Shown: piece by piece, positions 33,276-59,312 of the stretch
Layout of the letters: each line of letters begins with the position of its first letter
Position numbering within the stretch: position 1 is the stretch's first letter
Assembly: GCA_016860985.1 (NCBI GenBank)
Contig: BOKM01000001.1
Coordinates: 2,310 to 66,309 of the forward strand
Reading direction: 5' to 3'
DNA: 64,000 nt
From: Patescibacteria group bacterium
GTDB taxonomy: Bacteria; Patescibacteriota; Dojkabacteria; GCA-002793355
Program-made: the position numbers and the translations under genes
Notes under the pieces: model-generated
Seen by the model: only the letters and a program-made list of their open reading frames with translations
Database searches by the model: none
Told to the model about the DNA's origin: nothing

Positions 33276-33278
33276 TGT

Positions 33279-33327: not shown

Positions 33328-34656
33328 ATGGACAATTCACTAACCATCGTCAATGTTTTAATTGACGACTTAATTAGTGCCGACTACAATCCTCGCAAGT
33401 GGGATCAGAAGGCTTTAAACGACCTAAGAGCGAGCATTAAGAAGTTCGGTCTGGTTGACCCTGCTCTAGTAAATGGTGCAACCAATCGCAAAAACATTGT
33501 CATTGGTGGCCACATGCGTATTGCAGCAGCAAAATCACTAGGTATTACCGAAATGCCTGTTGTTTATCTAAACATTCCTGATTTAGAGAAGGAAAAGGAG
33601 CTTAATCTTAGACTGAATAAAAATCAGGGAGAGTTTGATTTCAAACTACTTGCACACTTTGCAGAAGATTTTCTTACTGACATTGGTTTCAATTCAGAAG
33701 AGATGGACTCCATCTTTGATTGGGAAGACGATACACCTGAAGTATTCGATCTTCAAAAGGAACTTGAGAAACTCAACATCAGTAAAATTGAGATAGAAAA
33801 GGGAGATGTCTGGCAACTTGGAGAGAATCGATTAATGTGTGGTGACTCCACAATTCAAGAAGATATTCAAAAGCTACTTAATAACGAGAAAGCTGACATG
33901 GTTATGACTGACCCACCGTATATTCTTGATTACTTGCATGGGAAAACTAAGCACGGTAAAGCGACAGAAGGATTCGGTTATAAACGAGACAGAAAGTATT
34001 TAGAAACAGATTCCATACCTGAAAACTTCACAGAACTGTGGATGAAGAATATCTCAGAAGTAGCCAAAGAGAACTTTCATATAATTGTCTATGAAAATTG
34101 GAAAAACATTAGGACTATTTGGGCAGAGATGGAAAAGTACTGGAAAGTTAAGAATATGATTGTCTGGCATCTACCTAACCGCAACCAAAGTTTTGCAGCA
34201 AAGTACAAATTCTTTTCTAAACATGATATTGCTATGGTTGGCTCTTCTTATACCGAAGAGGCCTTTAATCTTGAAATGGAGGAGAAACTCCTACAAAACG
34301 AGTATGAGACTGCACTCTATGCAATATCAGGTAAACCACATTGGGAAGGCTACGAAAAAGGTAAGAAGATTCAGCCAACTGACTTTCTTGAATACAATGC
34401 TTCAGACGAGAAACATTCGGGTCAAGGAATTGTCTTTGGTACAAAACCTATTGAGATCCTAATTCCATATATCAAAGTACTTACTAAGCGTGAAGATTTA
34501 GTAGTAGAACCATTTGGTGGAAGTGGATCTACACTTATTGCGTGTCAAAAACTAAAAAGGAGATGTTTTATCATGGAAAAATCGCCAGTATATGCTGAGG
34601 TCATTCGCAACCGATGGGAGAAACTCACTAAACTTAAAGCTACGAAGATAGTGTGA
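33328..34656 (+). CDS. ParB-like nuclease domain fused to an N6/N4 DNA methyltransferase (phage-type orphan methylase)
   Basis: N-terminal ParB/Srx motif (LVDPALVNG...IVIGGHMRIAAAK), central MTDPPY, and C-terminal EPFGGSGST (motif I). About 78% aa identity to 56133-57479. Confidence 0.85.
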   Translation: MDNSLTIVNVLIDDLISADYNPRKWDQKALNDLRASIKKFGLVDPALVNGATNRKNIVIGGHMRIAAAKSLGITEMPVVYLNIPDLEKEKELNLRLNKNQGEFDFKLLAHFAEDFLTDIGFNSEEMDSIFDWEDDTPEVFDLQKELEKLNISKIEIEKGDVWQLGENRLMCGDSTIQEDIQKLLNNEKADMVMTDPPYILDYLHGKTKHGKATEGFGYKRDRKYLETDSIPENFTELWMKNISEVAKENFHIIVYENWKNIRTIWAEMEKYWKVKNMIVWHLPNRNQSFAAKYKFFSKHDIAMVGSSYTEEAFNLEMEEKLLQNEYETALYAISGKPHWEGYEKGKKIQPTDFLEYNASDEKHSGQGIVFGTKPIEILIPYIKVLTKREDLVVEPFGGSGSTLIACQKLKRRCFIMEKSPVYAEVIRNRWEKLTKLKATKIV

Positions 34657-35036
34657 AAATTTCTTTAAAGAAACAGGTTCTTGAACAACTTAAGAAGACT
34701 CCGATAATTCAAGTAACCTGCGAAAAACTAGGAATAGCACGTGCTACCTTCTATCGATGGAAACAACGTGACCAGAAGTTCTCAACTTCGGTAGACAAGG
34801 CTTTACTTGAAGGCTCACTGCTGATTAACGATATGGCTGAGAGTCAACTCATTACGCAAATCAAGAATGCTAACATGACTGCAATTATCTTCTGGCTTAA
34901 GTACCACCATAGAGGATATACAAAAGAAGTTCTGGCTACTCTACCAAATCAGCCGACAAAAATTAAGGTGGAGATTATAAGAAGTAAATCTGATCTTGAG
35001 AATTCGGATAAGAAGGAAGTTCGTAAAGTAAGTTGA
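34653..35036 (+). CDS. terminase small subunit-like HTH protein
   Basis: GIARATFYRWKQRD (HTH) and AIIFWLKYHH. Paralog of 57476-57874. GTG start overlapping the upstream stop (GTGA). Confidence 0.5.
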   Translation: MKISLKKQVLEQLKKTPIIQVTCEKLGIARATFYRWKQRDQKFSTSVDKALLEGSLLINDMAESQLITQIKNANMTAIIFWLKYHHRGYTKEVLATLPNQPTKIKVEIIRSKSDLENSDKKEVRKVS

Positions 35037-35078
35037 TCTGCTAGATTTCTTGACGCGAAAAGAATAAAATTACATCAC

Positions 35079-38000
35079 ATGAGTGCTATCGAAAAATATA
35101 TTGAAGAAGTAATAAAGACTTATAAGACTGGGCATGCACGCGAGCATGCATATAGACCTGCGCTAGAGACTCTTATTGAAGAGATAAATCCCAATATAAA
35201 TGCAGTAAACGACCCTAAACAGCAAAAGGTGGGTGCCCCTGATTTCGTATTGCTTAAGGGGAAAACACCAATTGGTTACATTGAAGCAAAAGACATTGAT
35301 GTAAATCTGGAGAGCGAATTCAAAACAAAGAATCAATTTAATCGATATAAGTCTTCACTCAACAATATTTGTTTTACTAATTGTCTGGATTTTCATTTCT
35401 ATGTAAATGGAGAAGCAATCTCGAGAGTCAGTGTTGGAAAACTGGAAGCTGGAAAAATATCAATACTCACTGAAAACCTTCCTTTACTTGAAAGCTTGCT
35501 TGTCAATTTTACGACACTGAAGTCAATCTCAATTCGTAGTCCAAAAGAACTAGCATTCTTAATGGCTGAGAAGGCTAAAATGCTCAAAAATGTAGTCTAC
35601 TTATCGCTAAAAGAGGGATCTGAAGTGAAGGGACAGGTAGAACAACAATATGAAGTTTTTAAACAGATGTTAATCCACGACCTTTCATTGGAGCAATATG
35701 CTGATATATATGCCCAAACAGTCGCATATGGGATGTTTGCTGCGCGCTTCCATGATAAATCTCTTGATACATTTACAAGAGATGAGGCAAATAACTTATT
35801 GCCAAAATCAAATCCTTTTCTGAGAAATTTCTTTCAAACGATTGCTGGATACAATATCGATGAGCGTATTGTATGGATAGTTGATGATCTTGCAGAACTT
35901 TTCAATCACGTAAATGTCCGCGAATTGCTTGAAAATTTTGGAAAGGATACGAAAAGGAGCGATGTAATTGTCCATTTTTATGAAACTTTTCTTTCCGAAT
36001 ATGATGCAAAGATGCGCAAAGCCAGAGGTGTCTATTACACACCAGAGCCAGTCGTTGATTTCATTGTGAGAGCCGTTGATGATATTTTAAAAACTGAGTT
36101 TGGCATAACTGATGGCCTTGCTGATACAAGTAAAATTGACGTTGAAAAGGAAGTTCAGGGATTAAAGAAAAAGCAGAAGGTAAAGGAACATCGTGTCCAA
36201 GTACTTGACCCCGCAACTGGAACAGGTACATTTTTAGATCACGTTATCAAACATATCTACAACACAAAATTTAAAGGACAACAAGGTATTTGGCAAGGTT
36301 ATGTTGATGAGCACCTACTACCTAGGCTACATGGATTTGAAATTCTCATGGCAAGTTATTCAATGGCACATCTTAAACTTGATATTACTCTTGCAGAGAC
36401 TGGCTATGATTCATCTAAAGGGCAAGGGAAGCGTTTAGGTGTATACCTCACAAACTCACTCGAAGAGCCCGAAGCACATCAAAAAGACCTGTTTTCTCAA
36501 TGGCTAACGACTGAAAGTATGGAAGCAAACGAGGTGAAGAAGGAAAAGCCAATTATGGTGGTTATGGGAAATCCGCCTTATAGCGGTGAGAGTTCAAACA
36601 AAGGCAAATGGATTATGGATTTAATGGAAGACTACAAATTTGAACCAGGAGGCCAAGAAAAGTTAAACGAACGAAATCCCAAGTGGATCAATGATGATTA
36701 TGTGAAGTTTATTAGATTTGCGCAACATTATATCGAAAAAAATGGCGAGGGAATACTTGCATTTATTAATCCTCATGGCTTTTTAGATAATCCTACGTTC
36801 AGGGGAATGCGATGGAAGTTGTTATCTGTTTTCGACAAGATATATACTATTGATCTACACGGGAATACAAAAAAGAAGGAACTTACGCCCGATGGATCCA
36901 AGGACGAGAATGTGTTTGACATAATGCAAGGAGTAAGCATAAATCTTTTTGTAAAAAAGCGAGATTCAAGAAATAAGTTGGCAAATGTTTATTCTAAGGA
37001 TCTTTACGGTAAAAGAAATATAAAATATGATTTTCTGTCTACTAATAGAATTGGGGATATAAAATGGAACAAACTAGATCCCCATAATGACATGTATTTC
37101 TTTGTTCAGAAAGACTTTGAATTACTTAACGAATACGAACAAGGTATTAAGGTTAACGAGTTATTTCCAGTAAATAACGTTGGCATCGTTACTTCAAAAG
37201 ATGCGATTTTAGTTTCCGAAGATGAGGAGAAGTTACTCAAGAATGTACAAGAACATTATCAGATTAATACTGATAAAAACAAAGTTAAGAGAATTTCTTA
37301 TAGACCTTTTGATGATAGATTTGTCTATTATGATACAAAATTGATAGAGAGAGCAAGATACGAAGTAATGCAGCACTTAATAAAAGGTGCGAATTACGGA
37401 ATAATAATTCCAAGACAAGCAATTACAGACAACTATTCACACGTAAATATAACTCGGTATATGACTGACAATCGGTATCAATACAGCAATAAAGGAGTAA
37501 CAACAGAAGTTCCTCTCTATTTATACAAAGACTCCACACTACTTACAGCGACAAGAGAACCAAATCTTAGCAGAACGCTAATTACAGATATTGCCACAAA
37601 ACTAAAGCTCCAGTTTATGAACGACCATGAGCATGCAGATTCAGGAAAAGCAGGCACATTCAATCCATTAGATATTCTCGATTACATTTACGCAATCTTA
37701 CACTCACCATCATACCGAGAACGCTATAAAGAATTTCTTAAAATTGATTTTCCACGAATCCCGTTTACATCAGATCAAAAGTTATTCTGGTCTTTAGTAG
37801 AAAAAGGGAGAGAAATTCGACGATATCACTTAATGGAGCATACAAACAGCAGTTCATTAATAACACAGTACCCTGTTTCTGGTGAAAATGAAGTTATCAA
37901 CCCTAGATACTCCGATAATAAAGTTTGGATAAATGATACGCAGTATTTTGATGATGTACCTCAAATTGCATGGGGATTTTACATTGGTGGATACCAACCA

Positions 38001-38147
38001 GCACAGAAGTGGCTAAAGGATAGAAAAGGAACGAAGCTAACTTTTGACGATGTGTTACATTATCAACAGATTATTGTTGCCTTGACTAATACAGACAGAA
38101 TTATGCACGAGATTGATAGTTTGGCGATGACTTGGCCTCTAAAATAG
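35079..38147 (+). CDS. Type IIG restriction-modification enzyme (MmeI-like: N-terminal PD-(D/E)XK endonuclease + gamma-class N6-adenine methyltransferase + target-recognition domain)
   Basis: N-terminal GAPDFVLLKGKTPIGYIEAKD (PD...EAK), central LDPATGTGTF (motif I) and VVMGNPPYSGE (NPPY), about 400 aa of C-terminal target-recognition domain. 1022 aa. Confidence 0.75.
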   Translation: MSAIEKYIEEVIKTYKTGHAREHAYRPALETLIEEINPNINAVNDPKQQKVGAPDFVLLKGKTPIGYIEAKDIDVNLESEFKTKNQFNRYKSSLNNICFTNCLDFHFYVNGEAISRVSVGKLEAGKISILTENLPLLESLLVNFTTLKSISIRSPKELAFLMAEKAKMLKNVVYLSLKEGSEVKGQVEQQYEVFKQMLIHDLSLEQYADIYAQTVAYGMFAARFHDKSLDTFTRDEANNLLPKSNPFLRNFFQTIAGYNIDERIVWIVDDLAELFNHVNVRELLENFGKDTKRSDVIVHFYETFLSEYDAKMRKARGVYYTPEPVVDFIVRAVDDILKTEFGITDGLADTSKIDVEKEVQGLKKKQKVKEHRVQVLDPATGTGTFLDHVIKHIYNTKFKGQQGIWQGYVDEHLLPRLHGFEILMASYSMAHLKLDITLAETGYDSSKGQGKRLGVYLTNSLEEPEAHQKDLFSQWLTTESMEANEVKKEKPIMVVMGNPPYSGESSNKGKWIMDLMEDYKFEPGGQEKLNERNPKWINDDYVKFIRFAQHYIEKNGEGILAFINPHGFLDNPTFRGMRWKLLSVFDKIYTIDLHGNTKKKELTPDGSKDENVFDIMQGVSINLFVKKRDSRNKLANVYSKDLYGKRNIKYDFLSTNRIGDIKWNKLDPHNDMYFFVQKDFELLNEYEQGIKVNELFPVNNVGIVTSKDAILVSEDEEKLLKNVQEHYQINTDKNKVKRISYRPFDDRFVYYDTKLIERARYEVMQHLIKGANYGIIIPRQAITDNYSHVNITRYMTDNRYQYSNKGVTTEVPLYLYKDSTLLTATREPNLSRTLITDIATKLKLQFMNDHEHADSGKAGTFNPLDILDYIYAILHSPSYRERYKEFLKIDFPRIPFTSDQKLFWSLVEKGREIRRYHLMEHTNSSSLITQYPVSGENEVINPRYSDNKVWINDTQYFDDVPQIAWGFYIGGYQPAQKWLKDRKGTKLTFDDVLHYQQIIVALTNTDRIMHEIDSLAMTWPLK

Positions 38148-38192
38148 TTAGATTAGGAATAAATGACTTTAATAAGAAAGTTCTAGAAATAT

Positions 38193-38684
38193 ATGGTAAA
38201 CATACCTGATACTAACTTATTCATAGGTTCACGATTTGATCTAAGGTTAACCAATGAATCCGAATGGGCATACGCGCACGTTACAAAAAAGAGTCACCAA
38301 GAAAAACTTGGATATTTTAAAGCATTACCACCGACACATCCCAATTACATATTTTTTGAGGATACAAATCATATGTACGTGAATTGGGTAGATACACCAC
38401 AAGCAAGGTTCTACGATTTCCCAACTGGACAAGGTGTTCCTAATTTTATTCGTGTTTTAGATTTCATAGAAAAGTGGATTAAGAACCGCAAAGTGTTAGT
38501 GCATTGCGACCTTGGGGAATCTCGTAGCCCTACTACAAGCCTAACCTATTTGGCTAAACGTACTGAGATTTTACCAAACACTAGCTTTGAAGATGCTAGA
38601 AAAGAGTTTACTAAAATGTACCCAAGCTATAACCCGAGTGGAATCGCAAACTTTGTCTCAGATAATTGGAATTTGATCATATAA
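38193..38684 (+). CDS. dual-specificity/tyrosine protein phosphatase-like protein
   Basis: VLVHCDLGESRSPT is the CX5R(S/T) P-loop signature of Cys-based phosphatases. Confidence 0.7.
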   Translation: MVNIPDTNLFIGSRFDLRLTNESEWAYAHVTKKSHQEKLGYFKALPPTHPNYIFFEDTNHMYVNWVDTPQARFYDFPTGQGVPNFIRVLDFIEKWIKNRKVLVHCDLGESRSPTTSLTYLAKRTEILPNTSFEDARKEFTKMYPSYNPSGIANFVSDNWNLII

Positions 38685-38686
38685 TT

Positions 38687-40108
38687 ATGTTAACAAAGTC
38701 CGATTTTGTTGCATACATTGATTCCCCAAGGCACCTATGGGCAATCAAACACAATAAACTTACCGAAGTAGAACATAATGCATTTCTCAATCATTTGTTC
38801 GAGCAAGGATATGATGTTGAAGAGTATGGCGAAAAATATATTAGGGAAATATTGGTTCCAGAATACGAAGTTTCTAGCAACAATATCTTATTCCAACCAA
38901 CCGCCAATGATGGAGAGTTTGAAGCTCGGGCTGATGTACTGATCAAAAACCCTAAAACGAACAAATGGGACATGTACGAGATTAAAAGTTCGACAGAAGT
39001 AAAGAGACAGCACAGGTATGATGTTACGTTTCAGTCACTTGTATTTGGGAAGAATTATGAATTAGGCGAGATATTCATACTCCATCTGAACCCTGATTAT
39101 ACAAGAACCGGTGAAATCGATATTGCGAAACTTTTTACGAGAACTAATCTTACAAAAGTTGTCTCTGACTTAATTCATGAAGTCCAAATATTACGATACG
39201 AAGCGCTTGAGGTTATATCTGAAGACGACTATTCATTAGTACAGTCATGTATTCGCCCGAAATTATGCCCTTGCTTGGGAATTTGCCATCAAAACTTACC
39301 AGACTACTCCATATACGATATCAATAATCTGACAGCAAATGAAAAGAAAATTCGCGAACTGGAAAAATTGGGCTTTATTAGCATCGATGACGTTCCACTC
39401 AATTTCGCACTCTCAGAAAAACAAAGGTTTCAAGTTCAGATTGCGCAAAATAATCAAACATACATTAATTCTAATTCTATTGAGAAAAGTTTCGAAAAGT
39501 TACAGTATCCGATTTACTTTGTTGATTATGAATCGTTCAATCCGGCAATACCCATGTTTGATAGTTACAAGCCATACGACCAAATTCCATTCCAGTGGTC
39601 GCTTCACATAAAAGAAGATTTAACATCTGAATTGAAACATTATGAATTTATTGAAACACAACAGATTGATCCTATTGTTAATTTTCTAAGTGCTATGCAG
39701 GCCGTAGTCGGGACAAATGGTTCAATCATAGTATGGAACAAGGCATTCGAAGGCACGCAGAACAAAAGAATGGGGGAAATTCATTCAGAATTTAAAGATT
39801 ATTGTGAAAATATGAATTCGCGGCTATTTGATCTTATGGAAATTTTCAGAGATGGACTATACGCAGATCGAAAATTTAAAGGTAGTTATTCAATTAAAAA
39901 AGTTCTGCCAGTACTTGTACCTTCACTTAGTTACAAAGGTATGAATATTGCAGAGGGTGCGACAGCGATGGCGAGTTGGAATGATATGGTTTTCGGAAAT
40001 ACCGATGACGAACAAAAAGCACAGCTTAGGGCTGATCTTTTAAAGTACTGTGAGCTTGATACTTTGGCGATGGTAAGGATTTTCGAGAAACTCGCCGAAT
40101 TGCTTTAA
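38687..40108 (+). CDS. DUF2779-like protein (PD-(D/E)XK-type N-terminus plus C-terminal RNase-H-like region)
   Basis: EARADVLIK...YEIKSST (D/E-x-K) at the N-terminus, and YFVDYESFNPAIPMFDSYKPYDQIPFQWSLH matches the conserved DUF2779 motif as recalled. Start 2 nt after the phosphatase stop. Confidence 0.5.
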   Translation: MLTKSDFVAYIDSPRHLWAIKHNKLTEVEHNAFLNHLFEQGYDVEEYGEKYIREILVPEYEVSSNNILFQPTANDGEFEARADVLIKNPKTNKWDMYEIKSSTEVKRQHRYDVTFQSLVFGKNYELGEIFILHLNPDYTRTGEIDIAKLFTRTNLTKVVSDLIHEVQILRYEALEVISEDDYSLVQSCIRPKLCPCLGICHQNLPDYSIYDINNLTANEKKIRELEKLGFISIDDVPLNFALSEKQRFQVQIAQNNQTYINSNSIEKSFEKLQYPIYFVDYESFNPAIPMFDSYKPYDQIPFQWSLHIKEDLTSELKHYEFIETQQIDPIVNFLSAMQAVVGTNGSIIVWNKAFEGTQNKRMGEIHSEFKDYCENMNSRLFDLMEIFRDGLYADRKFKGSYSIKKVLPVLVPSLSYKGMNIAEGATAMASWNDMVFGNTDDEQKAQLRADLLKYCELDTLAMVRIFEKLAELL

Positions 40109-40146
40109 ACCCCAGACTTCATCCTTCTTTGCGTTACTTGTTGTGC

Positions 40147-40203
40147 ATGGAACAACCAACCAATACACCACTCACCTACTGCCTCTATACCAGAAAGTCA
40201 TCT
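40147..40203 (+). pseudogene. 5' remnant of a serine recombinase gene (first about 19 codons: MEQPTNTPLTYCLYTRKSS) with the conserved recombinase leader
   Basis: 40113-40146 aligns to the 34 nt upstream of both intact recombinase genes (…CAGACTTC.TCCTTCTTTGCG.TACT.GT.GT..ATGGAA). The coding similarity ends after the KSS codons, then a stop follows at 40222-40224. Confidence 0.55.
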
Positions 40204-49423: not shown

Positions 49424-49432
49424 TATATCTAC

Positions 49433-51114: not shown

Positions 51115-51123
51115 ATCAAATAA

Positions 51124-51603
51124 TTAAGGAAAAAGTATTTTCTTGGCAGTTTCAGACAATACGTCGACCACTAAAGAGCGGATTGCACTGATTCCTGATT
51201 CGCCTATTTTTTTGAAATTCTGCTTAAGCTTTACTGCCGCGACATCTCCTGCTGGTGATGCATTAACAAGTGCGGGGACTGATGACTTTATTTCTGCTTT
51301 TTCGGTATCATTCAGCCCTTCTGACATGCTAATAATTTCCTCGACACCTTTAATTATATTAGATGTCCAAGGATACGCGCCACCACATTCATAACAGTAA
51401 AGTGGTAATGACATTGTCCCATTCGAGATTACGGAAGGAATAACATATGCTCCTCTAATATTTGCACTACACAAATTGCATTTTGTAATTGTTTGAGCAC
51501 CACACTTGGAACAATATTTTTTATTACGTTCAGGTGAACCACTAGCATTGGAATTAATAATATGTCCGTTCTGGCAAATCTGCGCTGTGTTGTAATACCC
51601 CAT
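51124..51603 (-). CDS. zinc-ribbon protein (DUF2321-like)
   Basis: CQNGH...C-x2-C...C-x2-C...CYECG cysteine pairs within the first 85 aa. The N-terminal YNTAQICQNGHIIN resembles DUF2321 as recalled. Confidence 0.4.
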   Translation of the reverse strand: MGYYNTAQICQNGHIINSNASGSPERNKKYCSKCGAQTITKCNLCSANIRGAYVIPSVISNGTMSLPLYCYECGGAYPWTSNIIKGVEEIISMSEGLNDTEKAEIKSSVPALVNASPAGDVAAVKLKQNFKKIGESGISAIRSLVVDVLSETAKKILFP

Positions 51604-51635
51604 TCTAAATATGAATTATAACTGAACCCTTGGTA

Positions 51636-53261
51636 TTATAACCTAATTTCCCATCCTTGTTCATCTCTGTAAGTGACTGGAATACTGAACTCTTTCTCAG
51701 GATACCTTTCTAAAAACCACTCATTGTCCTTCTTCAGAAATACCGTTAAGTAGGGCTTTCCATCTCTATCCTTCAACTCGATACCCTTTAATTCACCCAA
51801 TCTGATTAACTTCCTCATTGTGGAAGCAACAATTCCGTACCTATACCGAATATCATCACTGCTGAACCAGCGCTTCTTATACTTACAAAGCTTGGCTGAA
51901 ATAACGCCATTTTTGATATTCATCTGGCAAACATCACATCGCATACCGTATTTGTCATACCAAGTATCTCTTCCTCGGTGCCATTGGTCACAGATACTGC
52001 ACTTAAAGCTATTATCATCCTCTGATTCTAAAAAGTACCTCTCAGAAAATTCATTAAGCTTCCGCTTTCTCAAGAGCTCTTTACCGTGGAATTGCGCTAA
52101 GGTTATAGAAAGTCGCACAAGGTTTGAATAACCATACTTATCCTGCCTTATTGGATCGAGTTCCTTAATTTTTCGTTTCTTCTTACCCTCGAACAACTTC
52201 GTAATGTCTTCTTCTCGTTCGTAACCCTTAAATCTGCCAGATAAATAACCGAGACGGAACGAGATGCTATCTTCTTTCATCAATCGCCAATTTGTATTCT
52301 CCAAGAGGTCGTTTACTGTCGCTGTGAAGCATTGAATACTTCTCTCAGCTGTTCTATCGCTTCCCGTATCTTGAATAGAGAAGGGGACAATTACAAATTT
52401 TTCTATCACTACTCTACCAAAATTCAGTTTCCTATAGCCTTCTAGTAACAACTTCGAATTAAGTAACCGTTCCAATGCACTAATGTTTAGCTTCTTTACT
52501 TGAAAGGATTTCTCCCGTGCGGGATCACTGTACTTACTAAGCTCATAAGTATAGACCTCGTTGGCAAATTTCATCTGCTCGAGAACATCCACCGCTACTT
52601 TTCCTTCTTCTTCATTCAAGCAAAACTGCTCTCGAAATTGCTGAAGAAGTTCACCATCCTTTTTCCTCTCTGCTTCAAGTTCGCGTGTGAACTGTTTATG
52701 GTCATGAACACCCTTTTCTCGGTGCCCACACTTCGTGCACCTGTAGAAATAAGTAGTAACGTCGTCTGAAAATGTACACTCGCTTTTCACAATTGCTTTA
52801 CACTTCGAGCACCGTTCTAGCGTTGGGACAATTTCATCTCCATTTTCGTAAACATGCTTTACGATACGGCAGTCCTCGCAAATCAGAGTGAACGTTATTC
52901 TTGACTTCAAATAGTCGATTCCATCAAAATCACGGGACAATTCTTTGAATTTTCTGCCGCACTGCTCACATCTAATGTTCGGTGAAATTGCAGAATCATA
53001 CCGTTTCTGTATTTTCTTATCGTCTTCCACCCATTTTTTGATGGTTTCCTCCTTCTTTTGGTATTCGTGAGTCTTGAGAAAATACAGTTGTTGATGAATA
53101 ATCTTATCAATCTCATGTTTGTTCTTACCGTTCGGGTATTTCTTCTGCAACTTCTTGTCAGCGTACATCTTATCTCTGACATCGAGAGCCATCAGGCATA
53201 GTTTGATAGTGCTAACGTCGTAACGATCCAGATAAAACTGACGTTTGTGGAGATACTGCAT
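51636..53261 (-). CDS. 541-aa multi-zinc-ribbon protein of unknown function
   Basis: At least six CxxC pairs (CEQCGRKF, CEDCRIV, CSKCKAIV, CTKCGHRE, CSICDQW, CDVCQMN) and a basic, Lys/Arg-rich composition. Confidence 0.4.
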   Translation of the reverse strand: MQYLHKRQFYLDRYDVSTIKLCLMALDVRDKMYADKKLQKKYPNGKNKHEIDKIIHQQLYFLKTHEYQKKEETIKKWVEDDKKIQKRYDSAISPNIRCEQCGRKFKELSRDFDGIDYLKSRITFTLICEDCRIVKHVYENGDEIVPTLERCSKCKAIVKSECTFSDDVTTYFYRCTKCGHREKGVHDHKQFTRELEAERKKDGELLQQFREQFCLNEEEGKVAVDVLEQMKFANEVYTYELSKYSDPAREKSFQVKKLNISALERLLNSKLLLEGYRKLNFGRVVIEKFVIVPFSIQDTGSDRTAERSIQCFTATVNDLLENTNWRLMKEDSISFRLGYLSGRFKGYEREEDITKLFEGKKKRKIKELDPIRQDKYGYSNLVRLSITLAQFHGKELLRKRKLNEFSERYFLESEDDNSFKCSICDQWHRGRDTWYDKYGMRCDVCQMNIKNGVISAKLCKYKKRWFSSDDIRYRYGIVASTMRKLIRLGELKGIELKDRDGKPYLTVFLKKDNEWFLERYPEKEFSIPVTYRDEQGWEIRL

Positions 53262-53280: not shown

Positions 53281-53967
53281 TTGGGGAGTTATTTGAGTGT
53301 ACAATATCCAATGCCAGATATTAATATTCAGCTTGAGAATTTGGAAAAGCTTAAACGACTACTTCTTGACAAGTATCTTGAAGCAGACAATAAGTGGAGA
53401 GATTTTTTAGATTTAATCGGTGGTGACGTCCTTTCTGATAAAAAGCTATTAATTCATAAACAACTAATCGAAGAACTCTCTGGAAGAAAATATATCTACG
53501 ACACGTTTAATAGAAATTCTTTTGCTATTGAAAACTTGGTGCATGCATTGAAGGATCTTTATGAAAATGATGAGAACTTAATAAATCAAAGCGGACAAGA
53601 GAGAGCGATTTCCTCAGCTCTCGCGCATCGTATGGGAATGTATTTTGAGAATACATACGATATCGATTGCGAATACAATAAGCATTTGAACGAACAAAAA
53701 TTAATTACTCAAGATGCGAAACGATCTGAACGTCCAGATATAATTGTTCACATGAGAGGAACAGATGCAAAAAACTTACTCGCCCTCGAAATAAAACAAA
53801 ATGAAATAAGTAAAGCTGATAAAGATAAACTTTCTGCGTTATCACTCGCTAACGGCCAGTATATATACAAATTCGCGATTGGCATTGAGATTAATGATAT
53901 TTTTGCACATATTTATATATATATTGATGGTGAATGCATAAATATTAGCAAGATTATTACTAGGTAG
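53281..53967 (+). CDS. hypothetical PD-(D/E)XK-like nuclease-fold protein
   Basis: DIDCEYN...RPDIIVH...LLALEIK follows the D/E...PD...(D/E)xK order. Confidence 0.4.
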   Translation: MGSYLSVQYPMPDINIQLENLEKLKRLLLDKYLEADNKWRDFLDLIGGDVLSDKKLLIHKQLIEELSGRKYIYDTFNRNSFAIENLVHALKDLYENDENLINQSGQERAISSALAHRMGMYFENTYDIDCEYNKHLNEQKLITQDAKRSERPDIIVHMRGTDAKNLLALEIKQNEISKADKDKLSALSLANGQYIYKFAIGIEINDIFAHIYIYIDGECINISKIITR

Positions 53968-55960
53968 TTTTGGATTCTCCGTTGAATACCGCGTTCAAAA
54001 ATGACTCAATTTCATCAGTCTGGAAGATTGCTGAAATATTTCTCGTCTTATTCTTGTTAACTATCTCACTAATTTCATATATTGAGTCATTGCTCAATTT
54101 TCTACTTTTTGGAGAAACCAATTTACTGTCGAGAGAAAGATCTTCGACTTCTCCATCAAGGATGCATATTCCATGCTTTCTAAGTGTTTCAAAGAATGCG
54201 ACTGCATTTTCTTTTACTTTAGGTAACTCGTCTATATTTGAAGCAAGATAGAACTCTCTTTCGTAACTGACCTTAAGCTGTGATCTTGTTCTTTGTATTT
54301 TTTTGAATATTTCTTCACCTTCAAGACCAAAAGTACATGATTGAGTAAAGAACTTGAGTCCAAGACTTTGTACCGACTCACTAGGTTTTGAACTATATTC
54401 AGCACATTTCTCGGTATCTTTATCTCTTAAATAATAATCAAAATCAGCTACCAAATAACATTCTAGGCCAAGCATTCTAACTAACTCAGCGTACTTGTGG
54501 ATATTATTCTTACCACCACAATTTAGAATTGTTGTATTATTCGCATTTAGTTGCATTGGGAACTTTTCGTCAGCAATCCATTTAATAATATGGCTATCCA
54601 GTCCCTCACAGAGAATAACTTTATCTGCGAAAAATATCTCATTATGATTATCGTCAAGAAGTAGAGACTGAAATTCCCTAATTTCAATAGGTGTTATAAC
54701 GGTTTTTTTGTTGATTCTTTTGACAAGAATAATATTCAATTCAGTTCCTGTAGTTTTTATGAACTCCGGACTATGTGTAGTCATAATTACCTGATTCTTT
54801 CCATTCTCAAGAAACTCATCGAACCTGTCGCTAATAACCCTTCGAGCATGTGGATGTAAATATAATTCTGGTTCTTCTACACATAACAAGGCACTTGCTT
54901 TTGAATTATATTGTCTTACATAATAACTAAACAGGCCAATTATAGTTGCACTTTGTATTCCAGCCCCCTTATCTGACAAGGGTGATTTAACACCGTCATC
55001 AATATAAATTTTAGAATCCTTATAGGTTTCTGTACTCTTATCTTCATTTAATTGAAACGATATGTCTGCACCAGGGAATGCAACATTTATAGTACTAGTC
55101 TGAATTTTTTCTCTTGCTACAGTAAATATTTTATCTGTTACTGACTTGACCTGACTATATGCAGTCTCTAACTCCTCGAAGTATGGGTGATCTTGAGTAA
55201 TATGTTTAAGTAGCTTGCCATACCAAGTATAACTTGTCGCACGCAATTGGATAACTGGATCCCTGAAACTACTAATTACAGCGCTCTGCAATAATTCTCC
55301 TCTTATAGGTGAGTTGAGAGCCAATATCCAACCTTTTTCAGGGCTTTCTCTATAAAGAAACCGCATATATTTTTCAACTCTGTGATTAATAACCTTTGCC
55401 CGAAAAACATACATAAACTCAAACTTGTTGTTCAGTTCATCTTCAAATTTGACAACATTACTGAGTTTCCCATCTACCCATCTCTTTCCTACGATATATC
55501 CACCTGCGGTTGGGTCGTCGACATCCTTGTCAAGAGTAAAAATCGAATCGAATTCGTCTGTAGTATAAGTATCAAAATGAAATCTTTTTTCAATATCCGC
55601 TTTTGGCCCTAGTTTAAAATCTGGTTTTGCAGAAAGAACTTTGTAAAATCCAGTAGTTTCGTTTATTGCAGCAAAATTAAGTTCTTCCTCGTTTTCTCTT
55701 TTTAGTATACAGGCTATTGTAAGTTCCGTTGCTGACTCTACAATGGCTTCATTCCTAAACGAGTGGAAATCTAACTCAGTTACATTGTCTGACTTGGCAT
55801 ATGTTGGGGACGATTCACCTAATAAAATATCAATCGCTTTTAGAATATTGCTTTTACCAGCATTGTTTCTTCCTACAATGACATTCTTGCCTTTACCAAA
55901 TGTTAGGTCTGCTTCATTGATAGATCTGAAGTTTTTAATAACTAGCCTTGATAAATACAT
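53960..55960 (-). CDS. OLD-family ATP-dependent endonuclease-like protein (ABC/AAA-type ATPase N-domain + Toprim-like C-domain)
   Basis: N-terminal LSRLVIKNFRSI...VIVGRNNAGKSNILKAI (Walker A). C-terminal region with DKVILCEGLDS (Toprim Glu) and LVADFDYYLRDKD (DxD). Confidence 0.6.
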   Translation of the reverse strand: MYLSRLVIKNFRSINEADLTFGKGKNVIVGRNNAGKSNILKAIDILLGESSPTYAKSDNVTELDFHSFRNEAIVESATELTIACILKRENEEELNFAAINETTGFYKVLSAKPDFKLGPKADIEKRFHFDTYTTDEFDSIFTLDKDVDDPTAGGYIVGKRWVDGKLSNVVKFEDELNNKFEFMYVFRAKVINHRVEKYMRFLYRESPEKGWILALNSPIRGELLQSAVISSFRDPVIQLRATSYTWYGKLLKHITQDHPYFEELETAYSQVKSVTDKIFTVAREKIQTSTINVAFPGADISFQLNEDKSTETYKDSKIYIDDGVKSPLSDKGAGIQSATIIGLFSYYVRQYNSKASALLCVEEPELYLHPHARRVISDRFDEFLENGKNQVIMTTHSPEFIKTTGTELNIILVKRINKKTVITPIEIREFQSLLLDDNHNEIFFADKVILCEGLDSHIIKWIADEKFPMQLNANNTTILNCGGKNNIHKYAELVRMLGLECYLVADFDYYLRDKDTEKCAEYSSKPSESVQSLGLKFFTQSCTFGLEGEEIFKKIQRTRSQLKVSYEREFYLASNIDELPKVKENAVAFFETLRKHGICILDGEVEDLSLDSKLVSPKSRKLSNDSIYEISEIVNKNKTRNISAIFQTDEIESFLNAVFNGESKTT

Positions 55961-56055: not shown

Positions 56056-56084
56056 TTGACACTTTCGATGTGTAGTGTTATTAT
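56056..56084 (+). promoter_or_regulatory. near-consensus sigma70 promoter (TTGACA - 17 nt - TATTAT)
   Basis: TTGACA at 56056-56061 and TATTAT at 56079-56084, 48 nt upstream of the ATG at 56133. Confidence 0.45.
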
Positions 56085-56132: not shown

Positions 56133-57479
56133 ATGGGAAACTCAATCCCCACATCTAACAAACTGGAAACGGTCTACGTTTCAATAGATCAGCTGAATCC
56201 AGCTGGCTACAATCCACGCAAGTGGGATAAAAAGGCTCTTGATGATCTCAGGAAGAGCATTAAGAAGTTTGGTCTAGTCGACCCTGCTATCGTAAATGGA
56301 GCCTCTAACAGAATGAACGTTGTTATTGGTGGTCATATGCGAATTGCAGCAGCCAAAGAGCTCGGTATTACTGAAATACCAGTAATTTACCTCAATATTC
56401 CCGATGTTGAAAAAGAAAAGGAACTGAATATTCGACTGAATAAGAATCATGGAGAATTCGACTTTAAGCTTCTTGCAAACTTTGCTGAGGAATTTCTAAC
56501 AGATATAGGCTTTAATTCTGAAGAACTAGACTCGATCTTTGACTGGGATGACGACACTCCCGAGGAATTTGATCTCAAGAAAGAATTAGAGAAACTTGAT
56601 ATACAAAACATCGAAACAAAGAAGGGAGACGTTTGGCAGTTAGGAGAGAATCGACTCATGTGTGGCGACTCTACCATTCAAGCTAACATGCTTGAACTTC
56701 TCTCTGGAGATAAGGCAGATATGGTAATGACTGACCCGCCTTACCGCTTGGACTACCTCCATGGTAAGAAAAAGAACGGTAAACCAACAGAAGGGTTCGG
56801 ATACAAACGAGATAGAAAATATCTTGAGACCGATACTCTACCTGATGATTTTACGGAACTCTGGATGAAAAACATCAAAGTGATTTCAAAAGCAGACTTC
56901 CATATTATTGTCTATGAAGCGTGGAAAAATTTGCGTGAAATTTGGGGCGAGCTCGAGAAGCACTGGAAGGTAAAGAATATGATTGTATGGCATCTGCCGA
57001 ACAGGAATCAAAGTTTTGCTGCGAAGTATAAATTTTTCAGCAAATATGACATTGCTATGGTCGGTTCTTCACACAGTGAAGAAAATCTAAACACTGAATC
57101 CGAGGAGCAATTACTCCAGGAAGAATACGAAACTGCACTGTACGCTATTTCAGGAAAACCGCATTGGGAAGGCTACCAAAAAGGTAAAAAGATACAGCCA
57201 ACAGACTTCATTGAGTTCAACGCTTCAGACGAGAAGCATTCAGGACAAGGAATAATCTTTGGTACAAAACCAATCGAGATACTTATTCCCTACATCAAAG
57301 TACTCACGAAACGAGGAGATTTGGTCGTAGAACCGTTCGGAGGAAGTGGATCGACTCTTATTGCCTGTCAGAAAATGAGGCGGAAATGTTACATCATGGA
57401 AAAGTCTCCTGTGTATGCCGAGGTTATCAAGAAGCGATGGGAAAAATTGACTGGATTAATAGGAGTAAAGATAACATGA
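56133..57479 (+). CDS. ParB-like nuclease domain fused to an N6/N4 DNA methyltransferase (second copy)
   Basis: Same architecture as 33328-34656 (LVDPAIVNG...GGHMRIAAAK, MTDPPY, EPFGGSGST). Confidence 0.85.
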   Translation: MGNSIPTSNKLETVYVSIDQLNPAGYNPRKWDKKALDDLRKSIKKFGLVDPAIVNGASNRMNVVIGGHMRIAAAKELGITEIPVIYLNIPDVEKEKELNIRLNKNHGEFDFKLLANFAEEFLTDIGFNSEELDSIFDWDDDTPEEFDLKKELEKLDIQNIETKKGDVWQLGENRLMCGDSTIQANMLELLSGDKADMVMTDPPYRLDYLHGKKKNGKPTEGFGYKRDRKYLETDTLPDDFTELWMKNIKVISKADFHIIVYEAWKNLREIWGELEKHWKVKNMIVWHLPNRNQSFAAKYKFFSKYDIAMVGSSHSEENLNTESEEQLLQEEYETALYAISGKPHWEGYQKGKKIQPTDFIEFNASDEKHSGQGIIFGTKPIEILIPYIKVLTKRGDLVVEPFGGSGSTLIACQKMRRKCYIMEKSPVYAEVIKKRWEKLTGLIGVKIT

Positions 57480-57874
57480 AAAAGGCCAACAAACCCGAGC
57501 TGATCGAACAGCTCAAAAAAACTCCGATAATACAAGTTGCTTGTGAAAAGGTAGGTGTAGCGAGAGCCACTTTCTACCGATGGCGAAAAGAAGATACTGA
57601 CTTTGCCGAAAAAGTTGAAGAAGCTGTAAACGCTGGATCACAACTCATTAACGATATGGCAGAAAGTGTTCTAATCACAGCAATAAAGAATGGAAACATT
57701 ACCGCCATAATCTTTTGGCTAAAGAATCATCACAAGATGTATTCCCCAAAAATGGAAGTAACAACAAAGAATGGCGATATTCCTTTAACTGACGAGCAAA
57801 AGGAACTCATACGAAAGTCACTCGACTTAGCCTTTGCAGATCAGTTAACAGATATCAAGCATGGAGAACAGTGA
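57476..57874 (+). CDS. terminase small subunit-like HTH protein (second copy)
   Basis: ATGA overlap with the upstream gene. GVARATFYRWRKED and AIIFWLKNHH, paralogous to 34653-35036. Confidence 0.5.
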   Translation: MKKANKPELIEQLKKTPIIQVACEKVGVARATFYRWRKEDTDFAEKVEEAVNAGSQLINDMAESVLITAIKNGNITAIIFWLKNHHKMYSPKMEVTTKNGDIPLTDEQKELIRKSLDLAFADQLTDIKHGEQ

Positions 57875-59312
57875 GATTTTTGAATATACGCCACAACTAC
57901 GGGATAAGATTGTAGAAAACCAGCCTCTCAGAAGAGCTCTTGCGAAAGAAAGCCACTTCTGGTTCTTTCATATCTACTTTCCTGATTATATTCATTTTTC
58001 ACCTGCGCTATTCCACAGAGAGCTCTTCTCCATAACAGAGGATAGCAGCATACAATTGGCTTCAATCGTTGCATTTCGAGGTAGTGCAAAATCAACAATA
58101 ATTACCATGTCTTCAGTAATCTGGTCTGTGATCGGCAAACTGCAGAAGAAATTCATCGTTATCATGTCGTTAACGCAAAGTCAGGCAAAACAACACTTAC
58201 GTAACGTTAAGATTGAATTTGAGTCGAATTTACTCCTTAGAAAAGACTTTGGTGAGATACAAGAAATTACTGATGAATGGGGATCGTTTTCACTATTCCT
58301 TCCAAAGTATAACGCTAAAATAATTGCCGTATCTACCGAACAAAGTATTCGAGGTATTCGTCATATGTCGTACCGCCCCGATTACATAATCGGTGACGAT
58401 ATTGAAGACCAGAACGCCGTAAAGACAAGAGACTCAAGAGATAACACCTACAACTGGTTCAAAGGTGAAATAATCTCATTAGGTGACGAGAATACCAAGA
58501 TTATCCTTATTGGGAACCTCCTACACGAAGACTCGCTTCTTATGCGAATAAAGAAAGAGATTCAGGAAGGTGCATTGTCAGGAATTGTTAGAGAATACCC
58601 TTTTATGGATGAACATGGAGTTCCTCTATGGAAAAGCAGATATCCCGATGAAGAATCAATTCAGAAAGTCAAAAGTAAGTTGGGTGATGAAAAGACTTGG
58701 CAACGTGAATTCATGTTAAAAATCATTCCCGATGCAGATCAGATTATAAAGAAGGAATGGATTCACTATTGGGATACTTTACCCTTAGACCGGAAAGACT
58801 TTCGATATTCAGTATTGTCAGTTGATCCAGCCATATCGGAACAAGGAGACTACACAGCAATGGTAATAATGCACGTTTTTGGACGCAGAGGTAGTCTAAA
58901 GATATACGTTGACGCACAGATTGTTAACAAACGCCTAAATTTTCCAGACTCAATAAATCAAATCAAGAATTTTGCAGTAAACAATAAGCTGAAGAAATAC
59001 CGACTAAGAATATGTGTTGAAAGCGTCGCATTTCAGAAATCAATAGTGCAAATTCTTGAGAAAGATAATTTCAAGGCTAATGCAATTTCAGTTGCTGGGA
59101 TGAGTAAGCGTGAACGACTGGCATCCGTGTCAATGCTCTTTTCGCAAGGTAAAATCTTCTTCCCAAACAAAGGTGCAGAACAGCTTATTCAACAAATACT
59201 CTACCTTGGAGTCGAAAAACACGATGACCTCTGTGATGCAATGACTTTAGGGCTAAATTACATACTGAGTCAAGATACAAATGAAGAAGACTTGTTGTTA
59301 AGTTGGGTGTAG
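57861..59312 (+). CDS. phage terminase large subunit-like protein
   Basis: N-terminal ATPase (deviant Walker A AFRGSAKST; Walker B YIIGDDIED) and a C-terminal RNase-H-like nuclease region (VLSVDPAISEQGDYTAMVIMHVF). 483 aa. Overlaps the small-subunit gene. Confidence 0.55.
   Translation: MENSEIFEYTPQLRDKIVENQPLRRALAKESHFWFFHIYFPDYIHFSPALFHRELFSITEDSSIQLASIVAFRGSAKSTIITMSSVIWSVIGKLQKKFIVIMSLTQSQAKQHLRNVKIEFESNLLLRKDFGEIQEITDEWGSFSLFLPKYNAKIIAVSTEQSIRGIRHMSYRPDYIIGDDIEDQNAVKTRDSRDNTYNWFKGEIISLGDENTKIILIGNLLHEDSLLMRIKKEIQEGALSGIVREYPFMDEHGVPLWKSRYPDEESIQKVKSKLGDEKTWQREFMLKIIPDADQIIKKEWIHYWDTLPLDRKDFRYSVLSVDPAISEQGDYTAMVIMHVFGRRGSLKIYVDAQIVNKRLNFPDSINQIKNFAVNNKLKKYRLRICVESVAFQKSIVQILEKDNFKANAISVAGMSKRERLASVSMLFSQGKIFFPNKGAEQLIQQILYLGVEKHDDLCDAMTLGLNYILSQDTNEEDLLLSWV

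Follow-up and report, generated by a model that had tools for sequence, protein, structure and literature searches.

SaPI and PICI satellites carry a small terminase subunit (TerS) of their own, with which they redirect the packaging of a helper phage. The islands that we describe here resemble them in being small and integrated, in possessing an integrase, their own TerS and often a repressor, in frequently carrying defence or accessory cargo, and in lacking virion structural genes, and they too would make use of helper capsids. They differ in having a large serine recombinase instead of a tyrosine integrase, in encoding their own large terminase subunit (TerL) in about two thirds of cases, in having a ParB-methyltransferase as their most conserved gene, in lacking any recognised primase/rep-ori module or capsid-size remodelling genes, and in being hosted by CPR bacteria. 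Capsid-forming PICIs (cf-PICI) encode both TerS and TerL, as do the full-form islands, but they go further, having genes for capsid, portal, protease and head-tail connectors as well, so that tails are all that they steal. Our islands have none of those genes, and we rejected a capsid-forming PICI for lack of satellite-encoded capsid, portal or connector genes. The ssrA genomic islands of Dehalococcoides are reportedly moved by serine recombinases and accumulate in tandem, leaving short direct repeats behind, but their cargo is metabolic (dehalogenase) and, unlike the islands here, they have no phage packaging genes. Their integration at a small-RNA gene is described in PMC3146451. Tycheposons of Prochlorococcus are tRNA-associated, tandem elements with modular cargo in streamlined genomes, and they include a PICI-like subset with terS or a capsid gene and a minority that use large serine recombinases (bioRxiv 10.1101/2020.12.28.424599). 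They share tRNA association and tandem accretion with our islands, but mostly employ tyrosine recombinases and replication modules, their PICI-like members are reported without extra cargo (bioRxiv 10.1101/2020.12.28.424599), and they are without the ParB-methyltransferase/TerL core; a tycheposon identity was set aside given a serine-type recombinase and no recognised replication module.

The window (the whole 64-kb stretch of DNA analysed, from a CPR-type genome of ~1 Mb) contains three adjacent islands associated with serine recombinases, E0, E1 and E2, two of which belong to one conserved integrative-element family. The core of this family comprises a ParB-methyltransferase, a translationally coupled TerS, usually a TerL, and a large serine recombinase that closes the element on the right. 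Exchangeable cargo, mostly restriction-modification (R-M) or anti-phage, occupies the slot between terminase and recombinase and the left arm. Two pairs of ParB-methyltransferase and TerS genes are present in the window, as a preliminary description had claimed, and all lie on the forward strand. The methyltransferases (ParB_N + N6_N4_Mtase by Pfam, with PHROG matches, phrog_498 for copy 1) occupy 33328-34656 and 56133-57479 and are 80% identical across 440 aa; hundreds of relatives of copy 1 have 75-83% identity. The small HTH proteins at 34653-35036 (phrog_309 and other TerS PHROGs) and 57476-57874 (seven TerS PHROGs, and Pfam HTH_Tnp_1_2 above cutoff) are 54% identical in amino acids, and the DNA of the two modules aligns at 73% (33384-34909 with 56207-57732). 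The start of TerS copy 1 overlaps the methylase stop by 4 nt; copy 2 probably begins at the ATG at 57476 rather than at 57386, with an identical overlap. Each module had also been credited with its own promoter and an operator-like repeat. There is a good promoter-like match upstream of copy 2 (TTGACA-17-TATTAT, 56056-56084), but consensus scans gave no signal above chance and the promoters are not upheld. The repeat holds for copy 1, where three phased direct repeats of ~31 nt (33193-33285, forward strand; repeat families D1/D2) are candidate operator or pac/cos-type binding sites, but not for copy 2, which has no repeat of at least 9 nt; such phased repeats are not general among related loci.

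A TerL accompanies copy 2 only, as had been proposed. The gene at 57861-59312 (forward strand), whose start is overlapped by 14 nt of TerS copy 2, matches phrog_38 (E=4e-83) and Pfam Terminase_6C and is a large terminase with an N-terminal Walker A/B ATPase and a C-terminal RNase H-like nuclease. Among 16 homologues K77/S78/T79, D179/D180/E182, D322 and D455/D456/D459 are invariant, and these are the Walker A/B ATPase residues and acidic residues of the nuclease; comparison with PDB sequences gave weak matches to 8dgc (a large-terminase ATPase domain) and 4bij ('DNA maturase B'). The small protein is a predicted small terminase on its PHROG matches, its coupling to TerL and its position in phages, the fold match by itself being weak: an AF2 model of copy 2 (pLDDT 77) has small terminases as its top Foldseek matches, weakly, the first being Sf6 TerS (probability 0.96, E=0.23). 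We rejected the possibility that it is an HTH fragment of an IS transposase, because a homologue occupies the TerS position in the phage locus L134, which also has portal and capsid genes, and because some relatives contain Pfam GP3_package (PF16677).

A fused R-M enzyme with an NPPY motif follows each module, again as first described, and both are encoded on the forward strand. Behind copy 1 lies a Type IIG enzyme (35079-38147; Pfam N6_Mtase/Eco57I/Type_ISP_C; PADLOC REase_MTase_IIG, E=0), with fused nuclease, NPPY methylase and specificity domain and without a helicase. Behind copy 2, Pfam and PADLOC indicate a Type ISP enzyme (59377-64000 and past the window end), in the domain order Mrr_cat_2, ResIII, Helicase_C, ISP_coupler, N6_Mtase, Type_ISP_C, so that one polypeptide joins an Mrr-like nuclease to an SF2 helicase, a coupler, a gamma-class NPPY methylase and a domain for target recognition. 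Its homologue in the related locus L252 has 1620 aa, and the last ~80 residues of the window enzyme lie past 64000. The methylase-TRD parts of the two enzymes are only 25% identical. The Type IIG gene forms a three-gene cassette with a DSPc-like phosphatase (38193-38684) and a DUF2779 protein (38666-40108), both identified by Pfam on the forward strand, and this cassette recurs in L001 and L164; 35044-40199 is 92.7% identical in nucleotides to that of L001, where it begins 5 bp past the TerL stop. On the same strand at 40110-40203 is a remnant comprising a serine-recombinase leader and the first ~60 nt of the coding sequence, 89% identical to the 5' end of the recombinase in L012 and alignable with those of both recombinases in the window; we read it as a scar of cassette insertion. 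Further downstream, a 1472-aa helicase-nuclease (40301-44719, forward strand; Pfam DUF4011, AAA_11/12 and MTES_1575 REase; PADLOC PDC-S37/Hhe-like) is a candidate defence gene.

The unit recognised in the preliminary description was real but drawn too small, for it also holds a serine integrase, left-arm genes and ends marked by repeats. Two large serine recombinases, absent from that description, are part of the same units as the modules. Recombinase A (about 22505-23845, forward strand; Pfam) lies in E0 and recombinase B (44850-46190, forward strand; phrog_95 integrase) is the integrase of E1; they are 91% identical in nucleotides and both have Resolvase, Recombinase and zinc-ribbon (Zn_ribbon_recom in B) domains. 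E0 (19256-23845) is without ParB-methyltransferase, TerS or TerL, and Pfam identifies on its reverse strand a Dam-like MTase (19256-20167), a Type II REase-like DUF6996/6997 protein (20164-20925; PADLOC REase_II), an N4/N6 MTase (20925-21725) and a DUF4145 protein (21771-22421). The left arm of E2 (48701-53261) keeps the gene order of L252 and L001, including DUF6994 (48701-49423, forward; Pfam), a 253-aa ORF (49433-50194, forward) and a 541-aa zinc-ribbon protein (51636-53261, reverse) whose family recurs upstream of the module in 39 loci, and it also holds variable genes; the defence cargo of this arm includes an OLD-family ATPase-nuclease (53960-55960, reverse; Pfam AAA_15 + OLD-like_TOPRIM; PADLOC Old). 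Island boundaries in the window are placed by repeats alone, because no tRNA gene was found in its 64 kb. A 62-bp motif, which has no tRNA or Rfam match, occurs at 18490-18551 and as direct repeats at 24712-24773 (84%) and 47535-47595, and its first copy may be an att remnant at the left edge of the first island segment. The other two copies form the end (the last 62 bp in the first case) of a longer repeat, R190 (24586-24773 and 47409-47595, 76% identical), the first copy lying 0.7 kb downstream of recombinase A; these two are candidate E0/E1 and E1/E2 junctions respectively. Its left half is also conserved behind the recombinases of L012 (in two copies), L164, L167 and L168.

The modules had been described as duplicated and diverged, which the comparison with other genomes does not sustain. 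The copies differ from each other to saturation at synonymous sites (pN 0.125), and each matches elements of other genomes as closely as it does its partner; the two are independent acquisitions and not an in-situ duplication. The backbones are 73-77% identical to L001 and L012, against 92.7% for the cargo cassette, and the junction between the tail of TerS copy 1 and the Type IIG gene is found also at the start of L164, a contig from another sample. Copy 1 represents a TerL-less lineage that gained its Type IIG cassette by recombination, and copy 2 the full form. The closest relative of copy 2 is L252 (TerS 96% identical), in which TerL is followed by a Type ISP gene, a PIF1 helicase, DUF2779 and one further ORF, with no structural genes for 8.5 kb past TerL.

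The same architecture recurs well beyond this genome, its core being found with intact catalytic motifs in genomes numbering in the hundreds. Across 80 species-representative genomes, almost all of which carry a Patescibacteria label, the relatives of TerL share the order ParB-methyltransferase, TerS, TerL, variable cargo (mostly R-M or defence) and large serine recombinase. The methyltransferase is upstream of TerL in every evaluable locus (70/70), and a recombinase lies downstream on the same strand in 59/80, directly adjacent in 32; R-M families dominate the cargo between the two, and the recurring adjacency of module and R-M genes first suggested by the window is in this way borne out. Of 61 loci, 29 (48%) have an S24 (LexA/CI-type) repressor homologue no further than 3 kb upstream, divergently oriented in 25 of those; the window copies have none. 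The annotated neighbourhoods yielded no primase or replication-initiator family, but many of their ORFs, including the 541-aa zinc-ribbon family, have no match. The elements measure 6-23 kb and can be present in multiple copies (two or three in the window genome, two on one 39-kb IMG/VR contig). Relatives have a site-specific integrase and defined attachment sites, while the ends in the window are repeats only: many loci have a tRNA gene beyond the recombinase, and the first such gene lies on the strand opposite to it, with its 3' end towards the element, in 25/25 cases; direct repeats of the tRNA 3' end flank islands of 13.6 and 17.2 kb, and a 99.9% identical element lies beside two different tRNA-Ser genes.

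The packaging genes of the islands are the first three late-operon genes of a group of tailed phages, with all structural genes absent. Four IMG/VR phage loci (L112, L127, L134 and L137) have a late operon with homologous genes in the same order, ParB/MTase, TerS and TerL, which continues into portal (phrog_2662/12), protease (phrog_80, in L127) and major capsid protein (phrog_10), but they are without a serine recombinase in the locus, unlike the islands. No locus combines portal/capsid genes with a serine recombinase, and TerL proteins beside portal and capsid form a separate clade (31-40% identical, against 41-79% for those beside recombinases). On gene order and homology such phages are the likely ancestors of the island packaging genes, and they are also candidate helpers. 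There is no portal or capsid gene in the window, the part behind TerL included, or in the Pfam-annotated neighbourhoods of relatives, and BLAST of the related phages' portal and capsid proteins against the recombinase-type loci gave no match. This agrees with the original view of the modules as phage-derived packaging genes without structural genes; an intact tailed prophage (Caudoviricetes) was rejected, since neither the window nor the neighbourhoods of relatives contain portal, capsid or tail genes.

Our essential proposal, which we hold with moderate confidence, is that these are inducible satellite-like islands that package themselves into helper-phage capsids. The satellite-like lifestyle originally suggested is the best available reading. 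The element would lie integrated and repressed in its host until it was induced or a related helper phage infected the cell, and the serine recombinase would then excise it. Its TerS would recognise a pac site on the element, and helper procapsids would be filled with the DNA by the element's own TerL or, in variants that have none, copy 1 among them, by that of the helper. The ParB-methyltransferase may mark or protect element DNA, and the recombinase would re-integrate the element in the recipient. In phage P1, pac cleavage needs adenine methylation by the phage Dam, a precedent for a functional link between methylase and terminase. A pac site was looked for and none was found. As a counterpoint, elements of 6-23 kb would underfill a head of ~40 kb unless concatemers or flanking DNA were packaged with them. 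The conserved function may also centre on the methylase and the HTH protein and not on packaging, since the methylase is conserved above TerL (75-83% vs 45-53%) and a third of loci do without TerL.

This last consideration leads to an alternative that we judge unlikely, a capsid-independent integrative defence island, in which the pair of ParB-methyltransferase and HTH protein would serve as an excision factor, or else as a regulated module for epigenetic or anti-restriction purposes, complete with its regulator. Such an island would move by excision and natural transformation or another route, and TerL would be an optional phage leftover. The far better conservation of the methylase fits this, as do the absence of TerL from 17/46 loci seeded on the ParB-methyltransferase, with no fragments or pseudogenes found in those 17, the occurrence of methyltransferase, TerS and recombinase alone in L236 and L242, and the weakness of the HTH fold match. 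CPR bacteria are generally thought to import DNA through competence machinery, which also counts in its favour. However, those TerL proteins that do occur have invariant ATPase and nuclease residues and are coupled in translation to TerS, which points to selection for packaging; homology and position both link the small protein to the TerS of real phages; and TerS-only satellites that use a helper's TerL, the SaPIs, are already known.

It is less probable still that packaging occurs in situ, resembling lateral transduction, starting at an integrated pac and running rightwards with no need of excision, so that downstream cargo and host DNA would be transduced at high frequency. This would explain why defence genes are piled directly downstream of TerL, the cargo lying in the usual headful direction from terS/terL, and the islands are small beside a phage head. 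Lateral transduction is a demonstrated route by which phages and PICIs mobilise chromosomal defence genes (PMC12829572), which offers a precedent. But defence cargo is found upstream of the module too (OLD, nSTAND and Type I R-M in left arms), the elements are bounded at both ends and travel whole from one tRNA gene to another, and helper capsids would still be needed, which makes in-situ packaging a variant of our main explanation and not an alternative to it.

We give little credence to a decoy role, in which TerS and TerL would mis-package or cut the DNA of related invading phages and be retained alongside other defence genes. The constant association with defence cargo is consistent with it, and satellites and prophages are known to block helper packaging, for instance by inhibiting virion assembly (PMC10884400), but it leaves the integrase, tRNA targeting, repressor and universal methylase unexplained and could be accommodated in the satellite model as a side effect. 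Scarcely tenable is the view of orphaned, decayed prophage remnants with a second copy made by local duplication, for although the genes are phage-derived, one copy is without TerL and related loci are listed as viral contigs in IMG/VR, this is largely refuted by a core with intact motifs at 448 loci in species-representative genomes, purifying selection on both copies with synonymous sites saturated, a clean, recurrent and precise TerL loss whose junction is common to a contig from another sample, and a lack of pseudogene fragments, and of structural-gene remnants in any neighbourhood examined.

The identity of these islands as a conserved mobile family is well supported, while the proposed satellite mechanism is one that we infer, with transfer probably by way of the capsids of other phages. 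They form a family of small integrating elements that is widespread among the ultra-small CPR/Patescibacteria and has apparently not been described before, and in which defence cargo would pay for the upkeep of the element in its host.

The two modules of the window proved to be paired as the preliminary description had it. The ORFs at 33328-34656 and 56133-57479 each join a ParB N-terminal domain to an N6/N4 DNA methylase (ParB-MT1 and ParB-MT2) and are 80% identical; the small ORFs that follow (34653-35036 and 57476-57874) are 54% identical, overlap the methylase stop codons by 4 nt and match several small-terminase (TerS) PHROG families. A large terminase (TerL) is present in copy 2 only (57861-59312; phrog_38, E=4e-83), with Walker A, Walker B and nuclease acidic residues that do not vary among 16 aligned homologues, and among PDB sequences a profile search yielded only weak matches, one with a large terminase and another with a 'DNA maturase B'. 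A fused restriction-modification (R-M) enzyme does follow each copy, Type IIG after copy 1 and a complete Type ISP architecture after copy 2, and their methylase-specificity parts are only 25% identical. The promoters that had been assigned to the modules could not be upheld, since consensus scans performed no better than chance or shuffled expectation, and the operator-like repeats stood for copy 1 (three phased ~31-nt direct repeats, 33193-33285) and not for copy 2, which has no comparable repeat. A terminator scan of the window found no excess over shuffled expectation. Two candidate features of the wider family were rejected: phased repeats 5' of ParB-MT as a pac or operator signature (27 of 172 loci, against 16 of 172 shuffles), and a ~200-aa ORF just 5' of ParB-MT as a fifth core gene, where several families occur that are unrelated by BLAST.

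A profile of TerL homologues identified 448 loci in species-representative genomes, of which the best 80 were analysed; surveys covered at most 80 loci each and are seed-biased, with ORFs defined by a longest-ORF heuristic (code 11) and labelled by BLAST to window proteins. Nearly all of these 80 belong to Patescibacteria, from many classes, and relatives of the window proteins carry names such as Dojkabacteria, Saccharibacteria and Patescibacteria, from which a CPR host is very probable for the window. Among the best 80, ParB-MT lies 5' of TerL in every one of the 70 evaluable loci, and a large serine recombinase is found on the same strand within 10 kb 3' of TerL in 59; it adjoins TerL in 32 of these, and one to nine ORFs intervene in the others. 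This slot holds 46 larger ORFs, mostly Type I, IIG and III-like R-M components, along with PLD-SNF2 pairs, a KAP NTPase and one reverse transcriptase, and none belongs to a portal or capsid family. Eight further relatives with Pfam-annotated neighbourhoods show the same picture between housekeeping flanks, and plus-strand gene runs after TerL in three loci turned out to be housekeeping. We are highly confident that the window modules belong to a conserved family of mobile islands that couple a phage-derived packaging module to defence cargo.

The relationship to true phages emerges from the IMG/VR relatives of TerL. Those of at least 42% identity follow the island pattern, while in those of 41% or less TerL is followed by a ~700-aa portal protein (phrog_2662/12) and a major capsid protein (phrog_10); a protease (phrog_80) was confirmed in one of these loci, L127. 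Another viral locus, L134, has the order ParB-MT-like gene, small-protein homologue, TerL, portal and capsid, which indicates that the ParB-MT/TerS/TerL trio opens a phage late operon at its 5' end and that the small protein is a true TerS, contrary to the possibility raised earlier that it was an HTH fragment of an IS transposase. Pfam GP3_package is found on some TerS relatives, and the top Foldseek matches of the AF2 model of TerS (pLDDT 77) include the small terminases of Sf6, phBC6A51 and NV1, with non-significant E-values. In a neighbour-joining tree of TerL, the 27 sequences with portal or capsid neighbours all fall within one clade of 32, and the 85 that are recombinase-associated are among the other 106; no locus in the tree set has both portal/capsid genes and a recombinase. 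TerL identity to isolated phages is 30% or less.

What the data, all of them computational, contain directly is gene content, conservation, modular cargo exchange, differing insertion sites, tRNA association and repressor layout. From these we infer a mechanism in which the elements would be satellites packaged with helper capsids, a reading to which we give slightly less than an even chance. The element's TerS would select its DNA, which would be loaded into the procapsids of related phages by the element's own TerL or, in forms lacking one, by that of the helper; protection of the DNA, or the licensing of pac recognition, would fall to the methylase, and the serine recombinase would integrate the element. 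SaPIs use a helper TerL, and pac cleavage in phage P1 is methylation-dependent, a precedent for linking methylase and packaging. More tentative still is the broader proposal of a Patescibacteria-wide class of minimal satellites, comprising methylase, TerS, optional TerL, serine integrase and exchangeable cargo slot but no capsid, that might be a principal vehicle of defence and R-M genes among these bacteria and whose ParB-MT might license or mark DNA for packaging.

The form without TerL is a regular variant. In a survey seeded with ParB-MT, the 46 evaluable metagenome loci among the matches listed comprised 29 with methylase, TerS and TerL and 17 with methylase and TerS only; a recombinase lies immediately 3' of TerS in some of the latter, and no TerL fragment was found in the 17 or in window positions 1-57000. 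The junction of copy 1 also occurs in another sample, where L164, read from the TerS1 tail onward, starts within that tail and continues directly into the Type IIG gene. An unlikely alternative is that the elements are capsid-independent islands, the conserved function being that of the methylase and an HTH protein. ParB-MT (33328-34656, 56133-57479) is far better conserved across the family than TerL or TerS: its matches number more than 6,200 proteins at E<=1e-50, with hundreds at 75-83% identity, and the TerLs of the same kind of loci are 45-53% identical. Seven loci (L031, L047, L060, L083, L100, L103, L104) have tandem TerL paralogues, ~43-45% identical to the window TerL, and a second class of element combines a diverged ParB-MT (27-41%) with an extra methylase of ~255 aa.

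Several observations bear on mobility. The same element (99.9% identity across 12.9 kb) is found in two contigs beside different tRNA genes, tRNA-Ser(UGA) and tRNA-Ser(GGA), with its junction ~160 bp past the recombinase stop. In all 25 loci with a tRNA gene after the recombinase, that gene lies on the opposite strand and has its 3' end toward the element (Ser 10, Gln 10, Met 3, Glu 1, Asp 1), and in two loci the tRNA 3' end is directly repeated 13.6 and 17.2 kb upstream. Of 61 evaluable species-representative loci, 29 have a homologue of LexA/CI-type S24 repressors within 3 kb 5' of the methylase, in 25 cases divergently oriented, which is the layout of a temperate-phage switch; none was found at the window copies. 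It is also conceivable, if rather improbable, that the islands package DNA in situ, as platforms resembling those of lateral transduction. A 17.3-kb Falkowbacteria contig (L032:1-17334) has 44-bp identical ends and no housekeeping matches. Besides a core of two methylases, TerS and TerL it carries a tandem pair of serine recombinases and a protein with an Ntox44 toxin domain, its remaining ORFs being unannotated; on slender grounds, the contig may be a circular or excised form. On one 39-kb IMG/VR contig two element copies, each with a recombinase (L098 and L099), parallel the tandem arrangement of the window.

Cargo exchange is evident in copy 1, whose cassette of Type IIG, DSPc and DUF2779 genes (35044-40199) is 92.7% identical to that of L001, a related locus where the cassette starts 5 bp past the TerL stop. 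Since the backbone modules of the two are only 73% identical, cargo has evidently been swapped between diverged backbones. A remnant of the recombinase leader and first codons persists at 40110-40203, which shows that the helicase-nuclease cassette went in at the 5' boundary of the recombinase. That the terminase pair is itself a defence, acting as a packaging decoy, we consider very improbable. The closest relative of copy 2 among the loci compared, L252, has a TerS that is 96% identical and a matching left arm (DUF6994, a 253-aa ORF and a member of the 540-aa family); after its TerL come a Type ISP enzyme of 1620 aa, then a PIF1 helicase, DUF2779 and a further ORF, none of them a structural gene. 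Of the evidence at hand, this bears most closely on the possibility, raised earlier, that structural phage genes lie just past the window, and it speaks against it.

The preliminary description regarded the modules as duplicates, but duplication in situ is contradicted by their divergence. Between ParB-MT1 and ParB-MT2 pS is 0.80 (saturated) and pN 0.125, and the TerS pair is similar, which makes both copies old and subject to purifying selection; each is also as near to L001 as to its partner, the DNA of copy 1 sharing 73% identity with copy 2 and with the L001 module, and that of copy 2 sharing 77% with L001 and L012. A decayed prophage with local duplication is largely refuted and the least probable of the alternatives.

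Self-comparison of the window revealed a second repeated pair, overlooked in the preliminary description: large serine recombinases at ~22505-23845 and 44850-46190 (91% nt identical), each with a non-coding repeat of ~190 bp on its 3' side (24586-24773 and 47409-47595), the last 62 bp of which (24712-24773, 47535-47595) occur a third time at 18490-18551. These repeats divide the region into three segments. The first (18.6-24.7 kb) carries two methylases, a Type II REase-like protein, DUF4145 and the first recombinase; the second (24.8-47.5 kb) has a left arm of assorted enzymes, ParB-MT1, TerS1 and Type IIG, then DSPc, DUF2779, a 1472-aa helicase-nuclease and the second recombinase; the third, from 47.6 kb to past the window end, contains DUF6994, DUF2321, a 541-aa zinc-ribbon protein, OLD, ParB-MT2, TerS2, TerL and Type ISP. 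We infer a tandem accretion of three islands because the left half of the 190-bp repeat recurs 3' of the recombinase in relatives (L012, L164, L167, L168); the exact motif is absent from L001-L163. Searches of the window and of the 62-bp and 190-bp motifs for tRNA, tmRNA and Rfam families gave no match, and a reading of the motifs as att remnants of tRNA origin is hypothetical.

The non-coding element 3' of the recombinases, seen also at L012:16225-16455 and 17298-17514, is conserved and combines a near-palindrome (GTTCCNAAGCTTNGAAC) with a block (CGTATTACAGGACTACGTTGACAC) and a 62-bp tail starting GATAGGACTGACGGGACTTGAAG; it could represent an att site, the end of an element or a small RNA. 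The two 190-bp repeats and the module matches 33384-34909 and 56207-57732 have an identical offset (22,823 bp), so that the ~8.6-kb spacers from repeat to ParB-MT in the second and third segments are equal in length within 1 bp; neither tblastx nor blastn detected homology between them, and the equality is possibly coincidence. A bipartite motif, CTAGACTT-N12-GCGGTAC, lies just 5' of the recombinase starts (22468-22504, 44813-44849) and in the same position in at least 20 loci (e.g., L002, L004, L012, L014, L016, L018, L092), including where recombinases share just 42-66% identity; it looks like a dedicated promoter or operator and coincides with the right edge of the cargo slot.

Some of the island genes deserve mention in their own right. 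The 541-aa protein (51636-53261, minus strand) has several CxxC zinc-ribbon motifs and no Pfam, PHROG or PADLOC match; members of its family lie 5' of the module in 39 loci and might serve an unrecognised core or replication function. DUF6994 (48701-49423), DUF2321 (51124-51603) and DUF2779 (38666-40108), the last adjoining R-M genes in several relatives, recur within islands and may be uncharacterised defence or accessory components. The left arm of the second segment (24831-33104) encodes non-defence-looking proteins, among them a truncated class II aminoacyl-tRNA-synthetase-like protein (368 aa), a SAM methyltransferase, an APH-type kinase, an LD-carboxypeptidase, a Nudix hydrolase and a 756-aa AAA_16 ATPase, which may be either cargo or trapped host genes. 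Typical elements also occur in 'MAG TPA_asm' records labelled Gammaproteobacteria, Bdellovibrionales, Flavobacteriaceae, Pseudomonadales or Eubacteriales (L033, L035, L043, L044, L049, L051, L054, L063, L065, L067, L070, L085); either these names are unreliable or the element exists outside CPR as well.

The known systems nearest in their working are PICI and SaPI, from which the elements are set apart by integrase type and host phylum, and also by often having their own TerL, by a universal ParB-methylase and by the lack of a recognised replication module. They are not cf-PICI, because they have no capsid genes, nor tycheposons, because the recombinase type differs. A full-text literature search of incomplete coverage found no published description, and the elements appear to be undescribed, though an earlier description may exist.

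CPR/Patescibacteria are a large share of bacterial diversity and have genomes of ~1 Mb; to our knowledge, gene exchange among them is poorly understood and few plasmids or conjugative elements are recognised. If our interpretation is correct, the satellite concept would be widened to a form with its own terminase and without a capsid, attention would be drawn to a ParB-methyltransferase of very high conservation with a putative link to packaging, and the labelling of such chromosomal regions as 'viral' by virus-detection pipelines would be accounted for. A family of elements in many CPR lineages would then represent a concrete route of gene exchange, one in which phage packaging genes and an integrase come together with a lysogeny-type switch and a slot into which defence systems can be swapped.
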